A DNA stretch of 63,575 bases, filler included, from Atractiella rhizophila (Eukaryota): the NCBI GenBank assembly GCA_021432655.1. It is 5 parts of 4 records of this genome, joined end to end, with 100 filler letters (N's around TTAATTAATTAA, not from the genome) between each part and the next. Parts side by side here need not be neighbours in the genome. Positions count along the whole stretch, not along the records: positions 29,225 to 59,515 come from MU271208.1; 4 more parts are not named here. One strand, written 5' to 3'. This document shows, in pieces, positions 29,225 through 52,241 of this stretch. The notes beneath the pieces were generated by a model. The model searched no databases. It was not told the origin of the DNA and was given only the letters and a program-made list of their open reading frames with translations. Positions within the stretch are counted from its first letter, which is position 1. Each line of letters opens with the position of its first letter. Position numbers and translations under genes: made by a program.

Positions 29225-29231
29225 TATTCCA

Positions 29232-41190: not shown

Positions 41191-42635
41191 ACTGTGTTAT
41201 TGATTCCCTCGTAGCGTCCTCCTCTAAAGTCCCATCATCCTGAAAGAAAAACAAACCAACTTTCTGACACGGGATGACCGTCACGTCAATTCAGACTCAC
41301 CCTATCCCGTGTCTGGCTGCTCAAAGAGAATCATATTCGAATTTGGTGCCAAAATACCTCATTTCGACGATATTGACGCGTCCACAGATTCCTATCGCGT
41401 CAGACTGTAAAATGCGGAACATCCTATGGAGCGTGTTTCAAAGGTGCCTTCGTCCCAGTTTAGTCGATAGGGGTATCGAAGTTTACAGGAAGAGTTTGAC
41501 GCGTCGATTGTGGATGTGAGGGGCGAAATTGTCGACTTTGTCGTTTGGGGACGGTGGTTAGTGGTGCTCAGACTTAGACTTCCCGTGCGCAAACAACCAA
41601 CTCTAGCACCTTCGACCTTCAAATCTGGATGACCTGAACAATGTGTCTAGGTTGTACCACAAATTTAAAGGTGGATACTCTCCACTCGGTCTGCCATCAG
41701 ACACATTCCACAAATCAAGCTGACCAATCCAGACACTGTCAAAGGAGTTCACTTTCGGCTTCTCTCCATCCGACCCCTTCCTTCTCTTGATCGGTTGTCC
41801 CCCTTGTGAGCTACAGTCTCTGAGTGGTGGCAGATGGGACTCTGCTCCAGTAGCAGCGGAATGAGTGGGGTAATGATTTGTTCAGAGATAAAATTGCAAT
41901 AAGATAACTTGCTTTAGTTCTACTTCATACAGTCTAATATGTTAAACAGTCAAACATGCCGAATAGTGTTATGATAAGCACAGAGCGCTAGAGCTAAGCT
42001 TCATAAATTAAAGATTCTTAACCGAAACTTTGCCTTTCTGAAGGAGCACACGTTCTACAAGGACATCCTTCGTGCCTTTTGCATCCAATCCAAAAGACTG
42101 TTCCCAGAGTTAAGTCAGCTACCAAGCTACGAAACGGAGTAGAACAGAGTTACGAGCAAAGCTTGCTTTAGAAGTGGGATAGTCGTCTTTAATCTACAGG
42201 CTTCATCGTCTCCTGCTAAGAGAAACGTCCAAATTGGTGATGCAGACATCTTGCCAGGCTTTTCAGAATGGACATAGACGGTCCCTTTGGATTCGAGCTG
42301 AACCGCCTTTCTGCCTGCTTTCCTCTTCCCATCAGAAACATTACCCCCAGGAGTAGAATTGGACTTGGTAGAAAGCTCTATTTGAGAACTTGGCGCATCG
42401 AAGGAGACGGTGCCAGTGGAAGCAGGAGTTGTAATTATCTTTGGGAAGGTCGTACGTGTCAACGTGTGTTTATTCCCATTGTTGCGTAGCAGCTGGACTG
42501 GAGCTGGCAGTTTCGTGGATCCTTTCTTCGGCATCTCAGATGGTATGGAAAGAGTAGAAACAGAGGCTGTCGTCTGAGAATCAGTTGGGGTCGTAGTGGG
42601 GACCGCCGTAGCGGCTGCGGCCATGAGAAGCACAT

Positions 42636-43076
42636 TGTCAGGCTTGCCCCTACGCATTACCGAAATGCACCTTCTGGAGTCACGTGACCTACTTTACCAT
42701 GCATAGGATCACGCACCTGCCCATCGCCGCTTTGCTCACGTTCACGCCGATCGCCGCTTTCCCCTGTCTCACACGAATCGCCGCTCAGCAAACCTTAAAC
42801 ATTTCGCCGGTCTGTATCATCTCCATTATTACCTTTATTGTCCTTTCTCACTTGTACTGCTTAGTATGTCTTATTTCCGAGTATTCCCTTTATTGCTTTC
42901 CTGATCCAACTATCTTACATGTTTCAAGAAACGTATGTTACAGTTTATGGCAGTGCCCTTACATATATATATATACATCGAGATGTAGTGGTGGTGACCT
43001 CAGAGTATTCTCTTAGGTTTACCTCCACTACAGACGCATCGCCTATCGGCGACCGCACATAGTGTCAGCCCTAACA
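42636..43076 (+). repeat. 5' LTR
   Basis: Identical by eye to 50874-51314; TA run 42962-42975; GTCACGTGAC palindrome at 42679. Confidence 0.98.
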
Positions 43077-43078
43077 GA

Positions 43079-43088
43079 AGAATACTCT
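43079..43088 (+). promoter_or_regulatory. Self-priming primer-binding site (Tf1/sushi type)
   Basis: AGAATACTCT is the exact reverse complement of LTR 43002-43011 AGAGTATTCT; no TGG tRNA-type PBS. Confidence 0.85.
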
Positions 43089-43117
43089 CTCTCATTTTCA
43101 AAACCAAAGTTAAAAAA

Positions 43118-44415
43118 ATGTCGGAGGTTTGGGGAGATATGGAAACGCGCGAACCGCCGACCAGCGAGGAACGCATCCAGCACTTAGAAAGGATGTTCCA
43201 AACTCTACACCTCACAACTGAAAAACAATTCAAAAAACTCGAACAAGACCTCATAACAAGCTTCAACCAACAAAATGCGCAAACCTCCCAGAATGCGAAC
43301 GAAATTGCGCAACTGAGGTCCGACGTCCAAAACACAAATGACCGAATTTTACAATTGCTAGACTCCAGACTACCCCTCCTAGAGATAGTGGGACCACTTC
43401 CCCCTTTTTATCGCGAACAGACCCAATACCTCAGGCTTACCCTTCTCCCTCTATACCCCAAACTGCCCAAGTTGCACCATATGCAGGTATCAAACTTGCC
43501 CCACCTTCAATCTTCAAAGGAGTACCCAACACAGCTCCGACATTTTTACGCGAAATTTACGTCTACACGTCTACTGTTCCAGGCCAATTCCCGACCGAAA
43601 AATCGAAAATCCTATTTACCCTTTCTTACATGAAAGAAGGAGATGCGGAAAAATTCGCCGCTGGGATTTTGCGCCGACTTGTCGAAAACGAGGAACAAAT
43701 TTCGTGGGAACAATTTTTGTCGGAGTTCAAAGCGCGTTTCTGCAAGACAGACCACAAGCTCATTGCGCAGACAAAAATATCATCCCTCCAACAAAAAGGG
43801 AACCTAGAAACCTACATCATCAAGTTTGAAGAATTGGCAAATCAAGCTGATTTTGATGATGAAGCCCTCATTTTTTTCTTCAAACGGGGACTCAATCCTG
43901 CCCTACACCTCAAAGTAACCCAAGGGGAGTTCCCAAAATCGCTGGAAGACTGGAAAGAAAAATCTCGGCGAATTGATGCGGAAGAATCTGCTCATTCAAC
44001 CTTCTTTCAAAACATCCCATCGGCGAAAGACGGACCACAAAATACATTTTCTGCAAAAAGAGACAGCTCAAAATCCTCAAAGCACAGAGAGAACAGAACG
44101 CCAGTATCGTATCGACCGAGCGCCGCATTGTCACCGGCCGCCGATCCGCCACCCAATGCCGCTCCACACGCTCATAGGGCCAAAGACCCCGATGACATGG
44201 AAGTTGACGCGACAAAGTCTAGACCTCCCCGTTGCAGGCGATGCCAGAAGATAGGACACCGAGAAAGAGAGTGTAGAACGATTATGAGCAAGGAGCAATA
44301 TCTTCGGGCCCAAGGAGAATATTTTGATTCGAAAATGATACATCTCGGACAATTCGCCGACCAGTCGCCGAAAACGAGTGCTACCCAATCGAAAGATCTT
44401 GAGGAGGATTTTTAG
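43118..44415 (+). CDS. gag: Gag with CCHC zinc knuckle, frame discontinuity near 43318-43380
   Basis: Second frame, open from 43342, has KLAPPSIFKG..KSKILFTLSYMKEGDA, DDMEVDA and CRRCQKIGHREREC; ATG 43118 is in another frame. Confidence 0.9.
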
Positions 44416-44486
44416 GACGGCGGTGGGTGGAAGAAGTGTCCCCATCGCCGAATTGCAATTCATTTACGTCACATAAAATCACTTCC
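44406..44486 (+). promoter_or_regulatory. -1 ribosomal frameshift signal between gag and pol
   Basis: G GAT TTT before the gag stop, 5-nt spacer, 10-bp stem 44418-44427/44441-44450; pol is in the -1 frame. Confidence 0.85.
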
Positions 44487-47400
44487 AACAAGATGCCGCC
44501 CAGCACAGTATTCCCCCCACGAGAACAAGACCCCCCATTCCCGAAGTTGCGTTTTCCCTCCTGGAGACAAAGATGCGCAGAAGTCGCAAAAATGTATGAC
44601 AAAGTCCACCTACGCTCGACTACAGCATCCCTCGTCAGTTCGAAGACGAAGCTCAGAACCGCATTCCACCATCCACATTCCCATCGCCGACACGCCACAT
44701 CGGCGCTCGTCGACAGCGGCGCAACTACTTCTTTCATTTCTCCAAAACTCGTTTCTGCATACAACCTACCTGTCACTCAACTTCCCTCCCCAGTACCTGT
44801 TTATAACATCGACGGATCCCTCAATCAAGGAGGATCCATCCACTCTGTTACTTACTTGCCCATTTCGATCGCCGCTCACCATGAAGTTTGGCAATTCGCT
44901 GTAGCGGAGTTAGGGACTGTCGACATGATTTTAGGCCACGACTGGCTAAGACACCACAACCCAGAGATCAACTGGGACTCAGGGAAAGTTGAGTTCTCTC
45001 GCTGCCCTACCAGTTGCAATGCAGATGACGTGTCTACCACTCGCGAAAAATTCCCGCCATCATCTACCTCGATACGAGCCGCTATGACAAAATCGCAGAA
45101 ACTGGCGAAAGACGCAGCGGCGATGAGACCAAAAAATGTCGTCGAAATACCAACGCAAATCGCCGATTTTGCAGACATCTTCGACGACGAAAAATTCAAA
45201 ACTTCTCTTCCTCCCCGACATCCTTGGGATCACGCGATCAACCTCATACCCGAAGCACGACCATATGCGGGACCGGTCTACCCCTTGAAAAGAGACGAAC
45301 AAGCGGCGCTCGACCAATTCATTGACGCCGAACTAAGCGCCGGCCGTATACGTCCTAGCACAGGTGAACATGGAGCCTCAGTTTTCTTCACGCACAAAAA
45401 AGACTCATCTGAACTTCGTCCCCTTTTCGATTATCGGAAGCTGAACGAAGCCACAGTCAAAGACAAGACCCCACTCCCCATTCAGGCTGACCTCTTTTCC
45501 ATGGTCTCAGGTAAAAAGTTCTTCAGCAAGATTGATCTGAGGAAAGGGTTCAACAACGTTCGTATCAAAGAAGGAGACGAACACAAAGCGGCGTTTCGCA
45601 CAAATCGAGGACTTTTCGAACCATTGGTAATGTATTTCGGACTCTGCAACTCACCGGCGACTTTCCAAGCTTTCCTGAACTCTATTTTCCGCACTATGAT
45701 CGCCACTGCGTTCATCTTCATATACATAGACGACATCCTAATTGCGACAGAAACTGAAGAAGAACACTGGGAACGCGTTCGACAAGTTTGTCAAGTTTTA
45801 CGCGAAAATGGGCTTTATGTCAACTTACAGAAATGTGTCTGGTGTCAAAGCGAAGTAGAGTATCTAGGTTTGATCATTACCAGCAGAGGGATCGAACCGG
45901 ATCCAGTAAAAGTTGCAGGAGTGATGGATTGGCCGGAACCGAAGAACATGAAGGAAGTCCAAATGTTCCTCGGTTTCGCTAATTTCTATCGCCGCTTTTG
46001 CGACAGATTTAGTCACATCGCAAGACCTTTATATGAACTGACCAAAAAGGGGATTTCCTGGGTCTGGGGGGTAGATGAACGACGTTCGTTCGCCGCTCTG
46101 AAGCAGCTCATGACTTCTGCGCCCGTTTTGGCACATCCCGAACAAATAGGACGATTTTTGCTTGAAGTCGATGCGTCAAATTTCGCGACAGGCGCTGTTT
46201 TGTCGCAAATGAAGCCAGATGGGAAGTTTCATCCTCTCGGTTTCGTATCAAAATCGCTCGACGCTGCCCAGAGGAACTATGACACCTACGACAAAGAAAT
46301 GCTCGCAATTATGCGAGGACTGCAAGAATGGAGACACCTTCTTCAAGGTACTGATGAGCCATTTCTGATCTTGACCGATCACAAAAATCTTGAGTATTTC
46401 AGGATGCCACAAAAGTTGAATCGGCGACAGGCACGCTGGATCACCGAACTTGCATCTTTCAACTTCACTCTTTTACACCGTCCTGGACGAAACTCCGCAA
46501 AACCAGATGCGCTCAGTCGGCGACCGGATCACAAACCGGCGACTTGCGACAACTTTGACGTAGTATTACTCCCAGAACGTTTTTTCAACACGGATCGTAT
46601 CACGATCAACGCGACTGGGAGCGCAGTTGCGCTCACTAGACAAATGTCAGAGTTGAGTATACTGGAACGTGTGAAAAAGGTACCTGAACGGGAAGAACAA
46701 GTAGTCAAAGCCTTGAGAGAGATCCTAGACGAACCAGTCGACGCAATTCGCCGACGGGAGTGGCAAGAAGTTGACGGCGCTGTCTACTTTCGAGGGAAAC
46801 TTTACATTCCCCGAGACGACGAAATTCGCCGCTCGATTTTGCAAGACCTGCACGATTCGCAAATCGCCGGTCATCCAGGTGTAAAATCAACGACGGCTCT
46901 CATAAAAAGGTACTACTGGTGGCCGGGTATGGCGCATTACGTTCGCCGCTATGTCGGCGCCTGTCACACTTGCCACAGAACAAAAAACTTTCCTTCCCCA
47001 CCTGTCGGGTTTTTGCAACCAAATGACATTCCCACGCGTCGATGGCAAATTGTCAGCATGGACTTGGTTGGACCACTCCCAGAATCTGGGGGGTTTGACA
47101 CGATTTTCGTCATAGTAGACAGACTCTCAAAACGCACCCATCTCATCCCCACCCATTCGACGATGGATGCAGAAGGCCTTGCAAGACTTTTTCGCGATCA
47201 CGTATGGAAGCTACATGGACTTTTCGATGTCGCAATTTTTGATCGAGGCAAAGAGTTTGTGTCCAAATTCACATCCGCGCTTTTTCGCCTATTGGGTATC
47301 AAAGGCTCACCATCGACAGCCTATCACCCGCAAAGTGATGGTCAGACTGAACGCATGAACCAAGAGGTTGAACAATATTTGCGCATTTTCTGCAATCACC

Positions 47401-48206
47401 TTCAAGATAATTGGGTAGAAGGACTTCCCAACGCAGAATTTGCGCTCAACAATCGCGTCAGTTCGGCGACGGGCGTAACTCCATTTTCGCTCGATTGCGG
47501 TCAACATCCCCGCATGGCCTTTGAACCCATCTCCGACGAGGACGTTCCCGCGGCGGCGCAATTCGTCGAAAAGATGCAAATCGCCGACCGGGAAGCACAA
47601 GCGGCACTCGAGCAAGCAGCAGATCTCATGGCAAAACATTATGACAGAAAGCGCGCACCGGCGCCCGAATATCATGTCGGCGATTTCGTCTGGTTGAGCG
47701 CGAAAAACATCAAATCGACGAGACCTGTCAAGAAGTTAGACGACAAATGGCATGGCCCTTTTCGTGTTTTGCAAGTTTTGGGTCCCCTCAACCTTAAACT
47801 CGAGTTGCCATCCTCATGGAAGATACATCCAGTGTTCCATGTAGGTCTAATACGAAAAGTCAACGAAGACGACATCCCGGGCAGAGTCCAGTTGCCCAAA
47901 CCACCTCCAGAATTGGTGAACGGAATTGAAGAATGGGAAGTGGAGAAAATTGTCGATGGAAAATGGTTCGGTACCCGAAATAGAGTTTTCAAATATCGCG
48001 TTCGATACAAAGGGTATTCACCATCTGAGGACGAGTGGATCAACATCGCAGATCTAGAAAATTCGCAGGACGCTATAAAAGACTATCACACTGCACACCC
48101 TCTCGCAGTTCATCCCAATTCCATACCGAACTCCGCAAAAAATCGCCCAAATGCACGTTTTCGTAACCTTCGACGAAAACACGCTGAAGGGTCTTCCTCA
48201 CTTTAA
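44427..48206 (+). CDS. pol: Pol: protease, RT, RNase H, integrase, chromodomain; intact
   Basis: LVDSGA, DYRKLN, YIDDIL, VDASNF, HHCC, SMDLV/FDRG/QTERMN, GPF, WEVEKIV..YRVRYKGY..DEW. Confidence 0.99.
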   Translation: MEEVSPSPNCNSFTSHKITSNKMPPSTVFPPREQDPPFPKLRFPSWRQRCAEVAKMYDKVHLRSTTASLVSSKTKLRTAFHHPHSHRRHATSALVDSGATTSFISPKLVSAYNLPVTQLPSPVPVYNIDGSLNQGGSIHSVTYLPISIAAHHEVWQFAVAELGTVDMILGHDWLRHHNPEINWDSGKVEFSRCPTSCNADDVSTTREKFPPSSTSIRAAMTKSQKLAKDAAAMRPKNVVEIPTQIADFADIFDDEKFKTSLPPRHPWDHAINLIPEARPYAGPVYPLKRDEQAALDQFIDAELSAGRIRPSTGEHGASVFFTHKKDSSELRPLFDYRKLNEATVKDKTPLPIQADLFSMVSGKKFFSKIDLRKGFNNVRIKEGDEHKAAFRTNRGLFEPLVMYFGLCNSPATFQAFLNSIFRTMIATAFIFIYIDDILIATETEEEHWERVRQVCQVLRENGLYVNLQKCVWCQSEVEYLGLIITSRGIEPDPVKVAGVMDWPEPKNMKEVQMFLGFANFYRRFCDRFSHIARPLYELTKKGISWVWGVDERRSFAALKQLMTSAPVLAHPEQIGRFLLEVDASNFATGAVLSQMKPDGKFHPLGFVSKSLDAAQRNYDTYDKEMLAIMRGLQEWRHLLQGTDEPFLILTDHKNLEYFRMPQKLNRRQARWITELASFNFTLLHRPGRNSAKPDALSRRPDHKPATCDNFDVVLLPERFFNTDRITINATGSAVALTRQMSELSILERVKKVPEREEQVVKALREILDEPVDAIRRREWQEVDGAVYFRGKLYIPRDDEIRRSILQDLHDSQIAGHPGVKSTTALIKRYYWWPGMAHYVRRYVGACHTCHRTKNFPSPPVGFLQPNDIPTRRWQIVSMDLVGPLPESGGFDTIFVIVDRLSKRTHLIPTHSTMDAEGLARLFRDHVWKLHGLFDVAIFDRGKEFVSKFTSALFRLLGIKGSPSTAYHPQSDGQTERMNQEVEQYLRIFCNHLQDNWVEGLPNAEFALNNRVSSATGVTPFSLDCGQHPRMAFEPISDEDVPAAAQFVEKMQIADREAQAALEQAADLMAKHYDRKRAPAPEYHVGDFVWLSAKNIKSTRPVKKLDDKWHGPFRVLQVLGPLNLKLELPSSWKIHPVFHVGLIRKVNEDDIPGRVQLPKPPPELVNGIEEWEVEKIVDGKWFGTRNRVFKYRVRYKGYSPSEDEWINIADLENSQDAIKDYHTAHPLAVHPNSIPNSAKNRPNARFRNLRRKHAEGSSSL

Positions 48207-48560
48207 GGGGTCCAACACCCCTATATGCCTTGCCGGGTGAAATCCTAGTCTTTGAGACTTAGGTCAAGGCAAGGCGCCGACTTGCTCCTCAACGGGCAAG
48301 TCGGCGACTTGGTCGTGGGTGAGTCCATTCGTCGCCCGTCAAAGACAAATGCTCATTGCGTTCTCGCACCATCACCAATGTCGCATTTACGAAAATTGTC
48401 CTCAATCGCGAGGTCCCCTCCCCCTCACTTTAAGAGGTCCTACTCCTCTATATGCCTCGCTGGGTGAATCCCTAGTCACACTGTTGAACATAGGTCTAAG
48501 CGAGGCGCCGGTCTGTTCCTCAACGGACAGATCGGCGACCGGTTTGTCGGTGAGTTACTC
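48196..48560 (+). ncRNA. Two copies (227-bp period) of a candidate structured cis-RNA element after the pol stop
   Basis: Three helices with compensatory substitutions between copies; loops conserved. Confidence 0.65.
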
Positions 48561-49264
48561 ACCCCATTATCACAAACGGTTGCTTACTGCACCAAAAACA
48601 ACACCGGTCAAACTTCAAAAAATCCCTCAATTGCGAGGTACACGATGACTTCCCCTCATCCTACACTCTGTTTTGGTTTTGATGATTATTGTTTCCTGTT
48701 TTTGCTTTTACATTTTGCTTCCCATCCTTGTTCGCTCGACAACACATTCTTCCACAAAGAAGACAGACCAGCGACGAGCACGCAAATCGCCGACACGTTA
48801 TACTGCGCGTTGTGTCCACGAACGCGTGGCCCGGGCCTATTTGGTTGCGAGCTCCATAATAAGCTTGGGTAGCTAGTGGGAGGAACACCTGAGGGTCCTC
48901 CCCTAGACAGGGGAGTGTGAGTCCTGCATCACCCACTTGGCCATTGCTCTCCTCACTCACCACAATGCCTTATGCCACCATGACACGATTTACACTTGTC
49001 GCCGCCTGGCGATTCGCCGCTGTTACGGAGGCGCAAAACGAATACATTTCAGAGATCAAAATCACCACTCTGGACTGACTCCTCACTATCGCTGCTGCTC
49101 GAAGAAGAAACGGAATGTGCATCATAATTGGAATTGTCATAGGCCTCTTGGGCTAAAGAAGGATTTAAGTCGCCCAGTCGAAACTCAATTTCGCCGATAC
49201 GACGTATTTTCTGCAACTGGCGATGGGTCAGGTGCCCTACGATGCCTAAACAACATCTAGATAG

Positions 49265-50749
49265 TCAGACAGATCGCCGAAAAACGGATGAACTCACCCT
49301 ACCAGTCACATCGGCGATCACACCTTCCACAGCCGAATCTTCACTAGCCCCATCCTCCGCGGCTCGATCGTCCTGCCTCCTTTTATACAATTCCATCTGC
49401 AACTCAGCGGCCTTCAGGGCGTCCGCCACCGCTTGCGCATTCAATTTGGCGGCAGCTAACATGGTTTGCGCGAAGTCCAGGCTGAATGCCTCAGAGTACA
49501 ATCGGGCGGCGCTCAGCAACGACTGCGAAGGAGAATCCTCGTCGACGTCCGAAATATTCTCGTAATTGCTTTCGATGAGAGCCGAAGGACGTTTTTTCCC
49601 GTCGCCGATACGTTTAGGATGGAATGAAGTCGACATTACGACCAACATTGAGAGTTCCCGCAAATAACCCAATGGCAAAACCTCACACCTTTTTCGCAAA
49701 CTATGACAACGCGAACAGACCCGTCCGAACGCGGTTGCGACATACCCAGCAGAGAAGTCGCACACCTGCGAGTCGTTGTCACCCTTGGCTTTCTTTTTCG
49801 CCGCTTTGACAGGCGCCGCTCGAACCTTTCCAGTACAATTGCTACAGCGCTGTGTCCCGATGCTTGCTAACGTGGGAAGAATGCGCGCATTCGCCCGAGG
49901 AGTCGTGATAACCAATTCGAGATCCAGCTCACCCAGATTGATGTTCGCCGCAGCGTGGGAATAAGCCTCACGAGTACCCGGCCAGAAGTACCGGTATTTC
50001 GCCGCATCCAATTCCTTGTCGCCGATTCGAACTTTCCCGTCGCGCACTACGAATTCGGCGACCGGCGCACCGGCGAACGGATTTCGATCCCCCAACGCTG
50101 CAGGCAAAACGAAAGTAGTTGCAGTAACCAGGTGGTCGGACAAGGTCCTCACGACCCCGACCTCGGATCCCTTCGTCGCCGAAATCGACTTTTGAGCGCG
50201 CAAATTTTCCTCCGCCGCTCGACGTTTAATTTCAAGCGCCGCCCGTTTTCGCTCCTCTCCTTCCTTAGCCAAGCGTTTTTTCGTGTCAGACAGGAAAAGA
50301 TCTCGTTCTTTCCTTCGCAAAACAGGGTCGCCGTTCGCCGACTCGGAGGGCTGATACCCGAGTTTCACCGCTTCCTCCTCGATGAGCGCCGCTTGTTCGG
50401 CCCAAAGACGAAGTTCATCACGCAATACCTGCAGACTTTCCACAGGCATCCGCAGAGGAAATGACAGAACCCGCTCATCACCGAAACCTTTAACGGCCTC
50501 GTAAGCCATTCGCACCTTCCCATCGCCGACGAGTTACCACACAATATACGAGACAAGAAAACTCACCTCTGCTTGCACCTCATCACAAAATTTGACATAC
50601 AGAGGGTAGCACCTTTTCCCCCACTCCAGCACATCGGCGAATCGCCCGAAGTTCACCTCCTTCGCCTTCTCCACGTCCCAGTAAATGGTACTCTCTTTCC
50701 TGTCCTTGTTCGCCAGAACGAAGTCGAAGAGTTGCGCATCGGTCGACAT
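49265..50749 (-). CDS. Antisense accessory gene inside the Gypsy, 2 exons, about 477 aa, Zn2Cys6-like cluster and coiled coils
   Basis: Exon 1 50749-50567 (61 codons), phase-0 intron 50566-50516 (GTGAGT...GTAAC...AAG), exon 2 50515-49265; C-x2-C-x24-C-x14-C-x2-C-x6-C. Confidence 0.85.
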
Positions 50750-50873
50750 TTTTGCAAGAATGGAAGCAGGGTGATGGTGGTAGAACTGGAAAAATTTTTC
50801 GCCCAAGCTAGCCGCAAACCTTAACTTTAAAATTCCGTGACTCACGTACACGAGTCAGTAATTTGGGGGGTGT

Positions 50874-51314
50874 TGTCAGGCTTGCCCCTACGCATTACCG
50901 AAATGCACCTTCTGGAGTCACGTGACCTACTTTACCATGCATAGGATCACGCACCTGCCCATCGCCGCTTTGCTCACGTTCACGCCGATCGCCGCTTTCC
51001 CCTGTCTCACACGAATCGCCGCTCAGCAAACCTTAAACATTTCGCCGGTCTGTATCATCTCCATTATTACCTTTATTGTCCTTTCTCACTTGTACTGCTT
51101 AGTATGTCTTATTTCCGAGTATTCCCTTTATTGCTTTCCTGATCCAACTATCTTACATGTTTCAAGAAACGTATGTTACAGTTTATGGCAGTGCCCTTAC
51201 ATATATATATATACATCGAGATGTAGTGGTGGTGACCTCAGAGTATTCTCTTAGGTTTACCTCCACTACAGACGCATCGCCTATCGGCGACCGCACATAG
51301 TGTCAGCCCTAACA
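50874..51314 (+). repeat. 3' LTR
   Basis: Identical by eye to the 5' LTR; preceded by GGGGGGTGT. Confidence 0.98.
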
Positions 51315-52241
51315 CACATCGAGGCTAGAAGCGCTTCGTGGGGAGGTAACTGTGCCCCAATATTAATACCTCTGGAGCCTTTAATGAAGGAGGAAAGGGA
51401 CATACCAATAAGTCCCAGCTCAGCACAATCAGACGGTGCGAGCTGAAGAGACTGTCAATATTAGAAGCATCAGAAGCATTTCAAGAAATACACCTTTCCA
51501 ATAATTCCCTCTCCCCCACCCTGAACCCAGCCCTCCGTTACCCCTTTCAACAGCTTATGCAGCTTCCTTGTAAGCACGAGGTAACACCCTCTTCCTGCCT
51601 CTCTTTCCAATACCATGCCGCTCCCTATCACAGTGAAAAGCTCTCTGAGGTGTGAAACAGACGCGATTCGTTCCCATGCACATAAGGACTTTGTTGCTTC
51701 CTCCGGGTCCAGCTTGTGGCCGAATCCTGTCTCTAAATCGTCGGCCGCATCTTCTCCAACTTGTTCACGTTTTGCTGCAAGCTTCCATACTGACAGTTCC
51801 TCTCGTAACACTGAGATGAAGTGACTAATAGTTCTGACCTTGTGAATCGTTCCATCGGTCTTCTGAGGGAGGTTAATCGAGACTTCTTTTGGGTGATGCT
51901 GTTTCAGAAGGATCGAGCTTGAGAGTTGCTGCCACAGTCTCTTGAAGAGTGGTTCTTCACCCAATTCAAGTTGACGAGTGATTTCATCTGTACAAATCAT
52001 CAGCTTTATTGAACAGTTAGAAACTTGCACATACCAAAACCCACCGAAACCTGTTCTTCAGACAATTCGAGGATTACTCCTGACGACATCACATCCATCT
52101 ACTGTGCATGAAACTTCAGTACTGCTGCTTCATGTGGGCTAATAAACAAGCGTCACACCTAGTTGAGAGACTTCCAACACATCGCCTTCTTTATGCAGTG
52201 GAGGGATTAGCTGCGTAGTGGCTCTGATGGTAGGTGAAGGC

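Follow-up and report, generated by a model that had tools for sequence, protein, structure and literature searches.

A candidate tandem RNA module at the pol stop codon of a long terminal repeat retrotransposon from Atractiella rhizophila

Our study of a 63,575-nucleotide stretch of DNA from the fungus Atractiella rhizophila (assembly GCA_021432655.1; five parts of four records joined by filler, with positions 29,225 to 59,515 taken from MU271208.1; called the window below) showed that an 8.7-kb long terminal repeat (LTR) retrotransposon carries two diverged copies of one RNA fold, the first around its pol stop codon and the second directly after it in the untranslated tail. We consider it probable that this module is an RNA structure kept by selection on the plus strand, and for a sample of two sequences the case for the fold and for its selection is solid. 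Its role is a more tentative matter. The suggestion that we prefer, while holding it somewhat below an even chance, is that the module is a plus-strand, protein-docking post-transcriptional element that contributes to the stability and/or the export of the full-length RNA.

Two copies of one fold at the end of pol

The module consists of two units, 48196-48422 and 48423-48650, which a direct-repeat search identified as a diverged tandem duplication with a spacing of 227 nt. Over its first ~135 nt each unit folds in the same way, into three hairpins P2, P3 and P4 that are possibly closed by a further helix, P1. For the structured sequence of both copies (48194-48328 and 48421-48558), RNAalifold predicts 39 pairs in six helical segments, with P1 formed by CUCACU/GGUGAG (6 bp), P2 of 5 bp, P3 of 8 bp followed by an internal loop with an invariant GGGUGAA and then by 2 + 6 bp, and P4 of 12 bp, in which the CUCAAC loop is invariant; two linkers, UUUAA and AUAU, are likewise single-stranded and invariant. 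The motif CCUCA recurs six times in 455 nt, a density of 13 per kb where the flanks have 1.4, and the complementary UGAGG is absent there. A third degenerate copy was sought and rejected, as was a likeness of the units to the LTR, to the leader or to other parts of the element, the local alignment scores (27-49) being at background level throughout. A tRNA-like reading was also rejected, as ARAGORN found no tRNA in the window and the pattern of junction linkers is unlike that of a cloverleaf.

Much of this had been anticipated by the original prediction, made from the sequence before this analysis, which proposed a duplicated RNA structure with compensatory changes, a conserved GGGTGAA internal loop and an invariant CTCAAC loop: all 39 pairs form in both copies, six of them after double changes, and both loops are unchanged between the copies. 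The CCTA/TAGG stem that it described is present, as part of a distal P3 stem that in full reads CCUAGU/ACUUAGG, and its placing of the structure just after pol was right as to the end of pol, except that copy 1 encloses the stop codon itself. Its suggestion that GGTGAGT pairs with the CTCA of the P4 loop did not survive, the best partner being the 5' CUCACU, that is, helix P1.

Several comparisons between the two copies argue that the pairing is kept by selection. Six pairs (one in P2, two in P3 and three in P4) differ on both sides and are still paired, one A-U pair has become G-U, and none of the 39 is broken. Pairing thus holds in 100% of the 78 cells, and falls to 30-44% once the 3' partners are slid by one to three columns. 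Shuffling reached the observed values in 8/500 trials, in a control that with two sequences has a floor of about 1 in 64; because it cannot pass this floor, random transitions were also simulated, and 13 of them placed in the stems left no broken pair in 285/200000 trials. The copies differ at 13/78 paired columns and at 19/56 unpaired ones, and all 13 differences in the stems are transitions, compared with 9/19 in the unpaired columns (Fisher p 0.0016), which is what passage through G-U intermediates predicts.

The identity between the units is 101/129 columns in the structured part and 49/92 in the spacers (31/67 when the conserved hairpin at the spacer end is left aside), so that both copies were kept while the neighbouring sequence decayed. 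Since the two LTRs of the element are identical and the insertion therefore young, the divergence of the units arose along the lineage of the element, with both units retained. The minimum free energy (MFE) of the copies is also unusually low (z -5.4 for copy 1 and -4.0 for copy 2, with 0/200 shuffles as good), and in a sliding scan of the whole element in 140-nt windows the five lowest z values of 244 windows all fell within 48166-48620, making the module the most structured stretch of the 8.7-kb element.

The pol-sense strand is moderately favoured by the same data, as the original prediction had it from the G-U pairs. On the plus strand there are five G-U cells and no A-C cells. The MFE of copy 1 is -64 kcal/mol on either strand, and that of copy 2 is -55.2 on the plus strand vs -50.7 on the minus strand, where P1 is lost.

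The host element and the region downstream of pol

The window holds one complete LTR retrotransposon, at 42636-51314, the features of which are collected in Table 1. A base-by-base comparison of its LTRs gave a 442-nt identical run, which includes one flanking T, and a 5-bp target-site duplication lies on both sides of the element. From the presence of gag and the domain order of pol, with its C-terminal chromodomain, the element is an intact Ty3/gypsy chromovirus; the features that define a Tf1/Tf2-like chromovirus, namely LTRs with a target-site duplication, gag, and protease, reverse transcriptase, RNase H and integrase with a chromodomain, were all found. The best protein relatives of Pol share no more than 53% identity with it in the integrase-chromodomain part, and those that bear a name are Tf2-like. 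Given its identical LTRs, this copy looks recently active.

Table 1. Features of the retrotransposon and its duplicated RNA module, in positions of the window.
Feature	Position	Strand	Details
5' LTR	42636..43076	+	441 nt, TG..CA; preceded by target-site duplication CACAT at 42631-42635
Probable self-priming fold	43005..43089	+	AGAGUAUUCU (43005-43014, in the LTR) pairs with AGAAUACUCU (43080-43089)
gag	43630..44415	+	Retrotrans_gag, Pfam PF03732, E 2.7e-14; zf-CCHC (zinc knuckle), E 0.0024
Putative gag/pol -1 frameshift region	44409..44448	+	five U before gag stop UAG, then 9-bp hairpin GGCGGUGGG/CCCAUCGCC; read from sequence
pol	44427..48206	+	protease, reverse transcriptase, RNase H, integrase, SH3, C-terminal chromodomain (Pfam); stop TAA 48204-48206
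Structure copy 1	48197..48323	+	P1 48197-48202/48318-48323; P2 48206-48210/48218-48222; P3 48227-48234/48268-48275; P4 48276-48287/48294-48305; GGUGAGU 48318-48324
Spacer 1	48324..48423	+	conserved blocks UGCUCAUUGC, small hairpin CCUCAAUCGCGAGG (48400-48413), then C/U-rich run
Structure copy 2	48424..48554	+	P1 48424-48429/48549-48554; P2 48433-48437/48445-48449; P3 48454-48461/48499-48506; P4 48507-48518/48525-48536; GGUGAGU 48549-48555
Spacer 2	48555..48650	+	conserved hairpin CCUCAAUUGCGAGG (48625-48638)
Antisense orphan gene	49265..50749	-	exon 1 50749-50567, 51-nt intron 50566-50516, exon 2 50515-49265; ~477 aa
Polypurine tract	50865..50873	+	GGGGGGUGU; abuts 3' LTR; loose contig ends and a joint at 50874 mark the LTR start
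3' LTR	50874..51314	+	same sequence as 5' LTR; followed by target-site duplication CACAT at 51315-51319

The pol stop codon (TAA, 48204-48206) is enclosed by copy 1 between P1 and P2, its final A being the first base of P2, and the 12-nt CCUCACUUUAAG at this stop is unchanged in copy 2, where it is non-coding. Readthrough of the stop codon was considered and rejected, as the frame past the TAA closes after 13 codons; a pseudo-ORF (open reading frame) running through the module (130 aa, stop to stop) found no match among 11 candidates when used as a protein query.

From the pol stop to the 3' LTR there are 2667 nt, in keeping with the 3' untranslated region (UTR) of about 2.7 kb of the original prediction, except that this tail is not empty: an intron-containing orphan gene lies in antisense within the 2.2 kb past the two units. 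The intron of this gene is of the form GUGAGU...AAG with the 5' site GAG|GUGAGU, its ATG lies at 50749 and its second exon has 416 codons; the junction between the exons agrees with protein P0002 in a tblastn mapping of homologues. The encoded protein had six matches in a 90%-clustered database, all of them hypothetical proteins of A. rhizophila with 57-91% identity, and just three representatives among 1.84 billion proteins. No Pfam family was found in it, an AlphaFold2 model from eight sequences (mean predicted local distance difference test score, pLDDT, 43.7) was too poor for searching, and the best score in the ESM Atlas (0.84) lay below a meaningful level. The protein carries a CxxC...CxxCx6C cysteine pattern and a lysine-rich patch. 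The gene has a probable 5' UTR intron near 50790-50848 (minus strand), and the gene model of one homologue begins within an LTR.

Among the pol relatives listed, those for which downstream DNA is available, including the closest two such (L002 and L003, ~50% identity), have a purine tract and an LTR within ~20 nt past the pol stop, and their LTRs start with TGTCAGG, as in the Atractiella element. The 2.67-kb stretch, the module included, is therefore an addition of this lineage, and the module is lineage-specific as judged from these sequences.

At the other end of the element, no TGG tRNA-type primer-binding site is present in the sequence after the 5' LTR. Instead, AGAAUACUCU begins 4 nt past the LTR and offers 10 nt that pair with 10 nt inside it, in a fold (43000-43100, z -4.4) that we take to resemble that of Tf1-type self-priming; this suggests Tf1-like self-priming for the element, with a predicted transcription start near 43003. 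The reading frames of gag and pol share 13 nt, with pol in the -1 frame (the pol frame is open from 44403 and the gag stop is at 44413-44415), and would be joined by a -1 frameshift at a putative site where the hairpin follows a short spacer and no canonical X XXY YYZ heptamer is present. The self-priming fold and this overlap are both in keeping with the Tf1/Tf2-like group. An upstream ORF (43118-43633, 171 aa, no Pfam family) overlaps the gag start codon with its end (ATGA) and may be an additional ORF or the N-terminus of gag read in a different frame. Inside pol, too, low z values appeared in the structure scan, at 45856-45995 (-4.9) and 46521-46660 (-4.3). Finally, the hexamer TCGCCG occurs 36 times in the 8.7-kb element vs 7 times in ~55 kb of flanks, a strong and strand-biased enrichment, and its complement CGGCGA is strongly enriched too; the base of P4 in both structure copies carries UCGGCGA, and TCGCCG may be a protein-binding word of the element family.

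Searches for related structures and further copies

The fold class of the module has no relative in Rfam. A search of Rfam 15 with 47000-52000 and with 48170-48680, at E up to 10, gave no family at its gathering score; the only matches, mir-iab-4, mir-1677 and UCA1, were below threshold (16-21 bits vs gathering scores of 73-84). There are therefore no detectable relatives among hammerhead, hepatitis delta virus (HDV)-like, twister and hairpin ribozymes, exoribonuclease-resistant RNAs (xrRNAs), tRNA-like RNAs or small nuclear RNAs. This agrees with the original prediction, which had recognised no hammerhead, hairpin or HDV core and had named in advance a match to an Rfam family as the result that would remove the novelty of the structure.

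A covariance model built from the two copies, R1, recovered from the window its two training copies alone, and nothing from 80 metagenome loci of pol relatives (39-51% identity). It also found nothing in 100 further loci (best 15.6 bits, E 0.47), which comprised three IMG/VR pol relatives, 66 of 120 genome-contig pattern matches and all 31 viral pattern matches. These pattern matches came from a loose loop pattern, with at least 120 matches in prokaryote genomes and 31 in viral contigs, and we take them as chance because none of those scanned with R1 scored; an exact-motif scan of the viral contigs gave no match.

The element family is high-copy, with 2054 and 1214 contigs of runs X1 and X2 of organism A on 3.6 kb (47600-51200). 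The summed depth of these contigs, a poor measure, over pol and the module is roughly fivefold that of the antisense region, a hint that the module may be more widespread than the antisense gene of the Atractiella element. In one contig, 48154 is joined straight to the start of the LTR. Of the 755 differences among contigs, the best-supported 40 include one in 274 nt of structured sequence, three in 185 nt of spacers and nine in the 596 nt of preceding pol, which lends weak support to conservation of the structured parts. The differences over this region in X1 and X2 are mostly C>T and G>A (in X1, 122 and 151 places vs 13-38 per transversion), an excess that could reflect ordinary transition bias or a process like repeat-induced point mutation. 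In a soil metagenome run, X4, two 151-nt contigs cover parts of the module (48139-48289 and 48355-48505) with two and one differences, so the same or a very close organism is present in soil of this kind. The literature on Atractiella retrotransposons yielded one unrelated paper.

Possible roles of the module

In the model that we prefer, both units would act as one cis-acting RNA module of the full-length, pol-sense transcript. The hairpins P2-P4, with P1 as a possible closure, would hold the invariant unpaired motifs at fixed positions, and these motifs together with the recurring CCUCA would be docking sites for RNA-binding proteins, the avidity of which would be raised by the presence of two copies. 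The module would mark a messenger ribonucleoprotein that has a 2.67-kb untranslated tail bearing an antisense gene, and the unspliced full-length RNA marked in this way would be kept stable and/or exported, like that of retroviruses with the direct repeats (DRs) of Rous sarcoma virus (RSV), the RNA stability element (RSE) or elements of the constitutive transport element (CTE) type. We infer the docking of proteins and the effect on stability or export from the position of the module at the head of the untranslated tail, the unpaired motifs framed by covarying stems, the tenfold excess of CCUCA, the two copies and these retroviral precedents. The roles listed by the original prediction (export, packaging or dimerisation, protection from nonsense-mediated decay, a block to nucleases) are likewise candidates at this stage.

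The RSE is described as a 155-nt element directly past a stop codon and ahead of a long 3' UTR, and the same account suggests that the 3' UTRs of RSV pol and src may act like it (PMC2925335). The module has the same position directly 3' of a stop codon before a long 3' UTR. It differs in that the RSE is placed past the gag stop, at which the majority of ribosomes terminate, whereas the module lies at the pol stop and nothing comparable is found past gag. The RSE is also reported to depend on PTBP1 (PMC4764554), a dependence that has no known counterpart in the module. The RSV DRs, of 115 nt, flank an acquired gene and are described as affecting cytoplasmic accumulation, stability, Gag expression and packaging (PMC3856414). 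Like them, the module comprises two diverged direct repeats (~115-135 nt) in the untranslated 3' part, beside an acquired gene, and the DRs act on unspliced RNA; unlike the module, they flank src rather than lying in tandem, and belong to a vertebrate retrovirus.

The CTE of Mason-Pfizer monkey virus is one long hairpin with two symmetric loops, unlike the module with its three hairpins per unit, and the transport elements of intracisternal A-particles and MusD are also of the CTE type. The module shares with such elements its place between the last ORF and the 3' LTR and a conserved internal loop flanked by covarying stems. CTE-type elements are described as structured RNAs between the last ORF and the 3' LTR that have conserved internal loops next to covarying stems and export unspliced RNA (PMC3856414).

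The DRs, the RSE and the CTE are the functionally closest systems, with no homology to the module seen as far as compared. The closest architecture is that of the plant Ty3/gypsy element Retand, in which pol is separated from the 3' LTR by a long region that holds antisense ORFs with a TRP28 domain, and tandem arrays in about half of the clusters, and for which the abstract claims no RNA structure (PMC11963269). Unlike the element studied here, with its orphan fungal protein and two-copy structured repeat, Retand belongs to a non-chromovirus lineage of plants.

Several points weigh against a docking element for stability or export. The comparative signal comes from two sequences, both of one element. 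No host protein is linked to its motifs. Nothing in Rfam matched the module, and no resemblance of its sequence or fold to the RSE, the DRs or the CTE, which were not compared directly with it, came to light. With a -1 frameshift, translation should mostly end at the gag stop, which lies 3.8 kb upstream and at which neither the scan for structure nor R1 revealed a comparable element; an insulator against nonsense-mediated mRNA decay (NMD) at the pol stop alone would therefore answer no obvious need, which weakens a purely NMD-insulating reading. P1, finally, is invariant between the copies and shows no covariation, so that its support is the thermodynamics of the isolated unit alone, and in a 551-nt fold it is lost while P2-P4 persist in both copies. 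Three other pairings compete with it: GGUGAGU can pair with the spacer block GCUCAUU/GCUUACU (7 bp), that of copy 2 can form a local hairpin with CUCACC at 48558-48563, and the GGGUGA in the P3 loop is a possible partner for the 5' strand UCACUU. What is robust is therefore a set of three adjacent hairpins, and a four-way junction closed by P1 is one possible closure.

It is conceivable, if rather unlikely, that the proteins bound by the module are encoded by the element itself, with the module as the RNA target either of the antisense orphan, in a jointly acquired accessory pair like Rev and the Rev response element (RRE), or of the Gag zinc knuckle, for packaging or dimerisation through exposed G-rich loops. 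Such a pairing would fit the presence of the module and the antisense gene within the same 2.67-kb insert that the nearest relatives are without, the restriction of the orphan protein to the family of this element, the CCHC knuckle of Gag and the invariant GGGUGAA left unpaired between covarying stems. However, the antisense protein has no recognisable domain and no tie to RNA, and the roughly fivefold contig depth is a weak hint that many copies carry the module but lack the gene. The packaging version has the further difficulty that retroelements mostly have their packaging signals close to the 5' end.

The 3' strand of P1, GGUGAG, is a consensus 5' splice site, and this raises the less probable alternative, absent from the original prediction, that the module is built of splicing signals. 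GGUGAGU (48318-48324 and 48549-48555) would recruit the U1 small nuclear ribonucleoprotein or be masked by P1, U1 would silence nearby cleavage and polyadenylation or stabilise the RNA, and CUCACUUUAAG would provide a branch point and 3' splice site, matching the CUCAC..UUUAAG at 48198-48207 and 48425-48434, so that 48319-48434 would be a 116-nt intron. The 63.5-kb window has GGTGAGT at four plus-strand sites, two in the module and none in gag-pol, and the antisense intron of the element uses this same 5' splice site (GAG|GUGAGU), with its junction confirmed against P0002. The non-coding identity of CCUCACUUUAAG in copy 2, with a C/U-rich run before it, would also be explained. Against this, GUGAG and CUCAC are reverse complements, so that a helix of the two mimics both signals on either strand; no 48318>48435 joint is found among 15 of 23 joints of DNA contigs; a spliced intron in a 3' UTR would be expected to invite NMD; and the covarying hairpins are left unexplained. 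To our knowledge, U1-dependent control of polyadenylation is not established in fungi.

We regard as improbable that the tandem folds block decay by stalling a 5'-3' exonuclease, which would leave a stable 3' fragment overlapping the antisense gene. The arrangement recalls xrRNA1 and xrRNA2 of flaviviruses, which are likewise tandem, diverged and compensated copies heading a 3' UTR; here the copies stand at the very start of the untranslated tail and their helices are very stable. The module differs from the xrRNAs in that an enumeration of the helices common to both copies revealed no three-way junction with a ring-closing pseudoknot, nor any covarying pseudoknot, and no Rfam xrRNA family matched even at E up to 10. 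The literature on retrotransposons, exoribonuclease-resistant RNA and Xrn1 yielded one general review only.

No better placed is the possibility that the module has no present function, being a captured structured host RNA or gene fragment, or a pair of arms kept complementary by templated repair during reverse transcription. The insert is lineage-specific and the sample is just two sequences, as this would allow. Yet the G-U pairs and the change from A-U to G-U show that pairing is kept at the level of RNA and not as identity of DNA arms, blocks within the loops and linkers are invariant although the spacers have decayed, and no Rfam host RNA family matches.

Least likely of all is a minus-strand role, in which the module would serve the antisense gene as its 3' UTR or terminator region, or would stop antisense transcription from running into pol: pol and the antisense unit do converge on the module, the fold of copy 1 is equally good on both strands and an A-rich minus-strand stretch at ~48670-48735 could be the antisense 3' end region, but the five G-U cells would be A-C mismatches on the minus strand with no converse case, copy 2 folds worse there and loses P1, and the antisense ORF ends at 49265, some 600 nt away.

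Post-transcriptional cis elements such as the CTE, the DRs, the RSE and the RRE are well worked out for vertebrate retroviruses, and we know of very few for LTR retrotransposons in general; none is described for a fungal LTR retrotransposon in the literature searched, in which no search was aimed directly at such elements. There is a modest chance that the antisense orphan gene and the tandem RNA platform at the pol stop form a two-part accessory system that controls the fate of the full-length RNA, in which case the platform might belong to a Rev/RRE-like pair, or be the first element described from an LTR retrotransposon that insulates against NMD or blocks an exonuclease. Should the helices fail in larger alignments, the module would be just a lineage-specific tandem repeat like those of plant elements. 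If it is functional, it would offer a handle on how a retrotransposon keeps a long, gene-tailed full-length RNA stable and unspliced and on whether accessory genes and their RNA targets are gained together, and would represent a new family of structured RNAs to be sought across the Pucciniomycotina.

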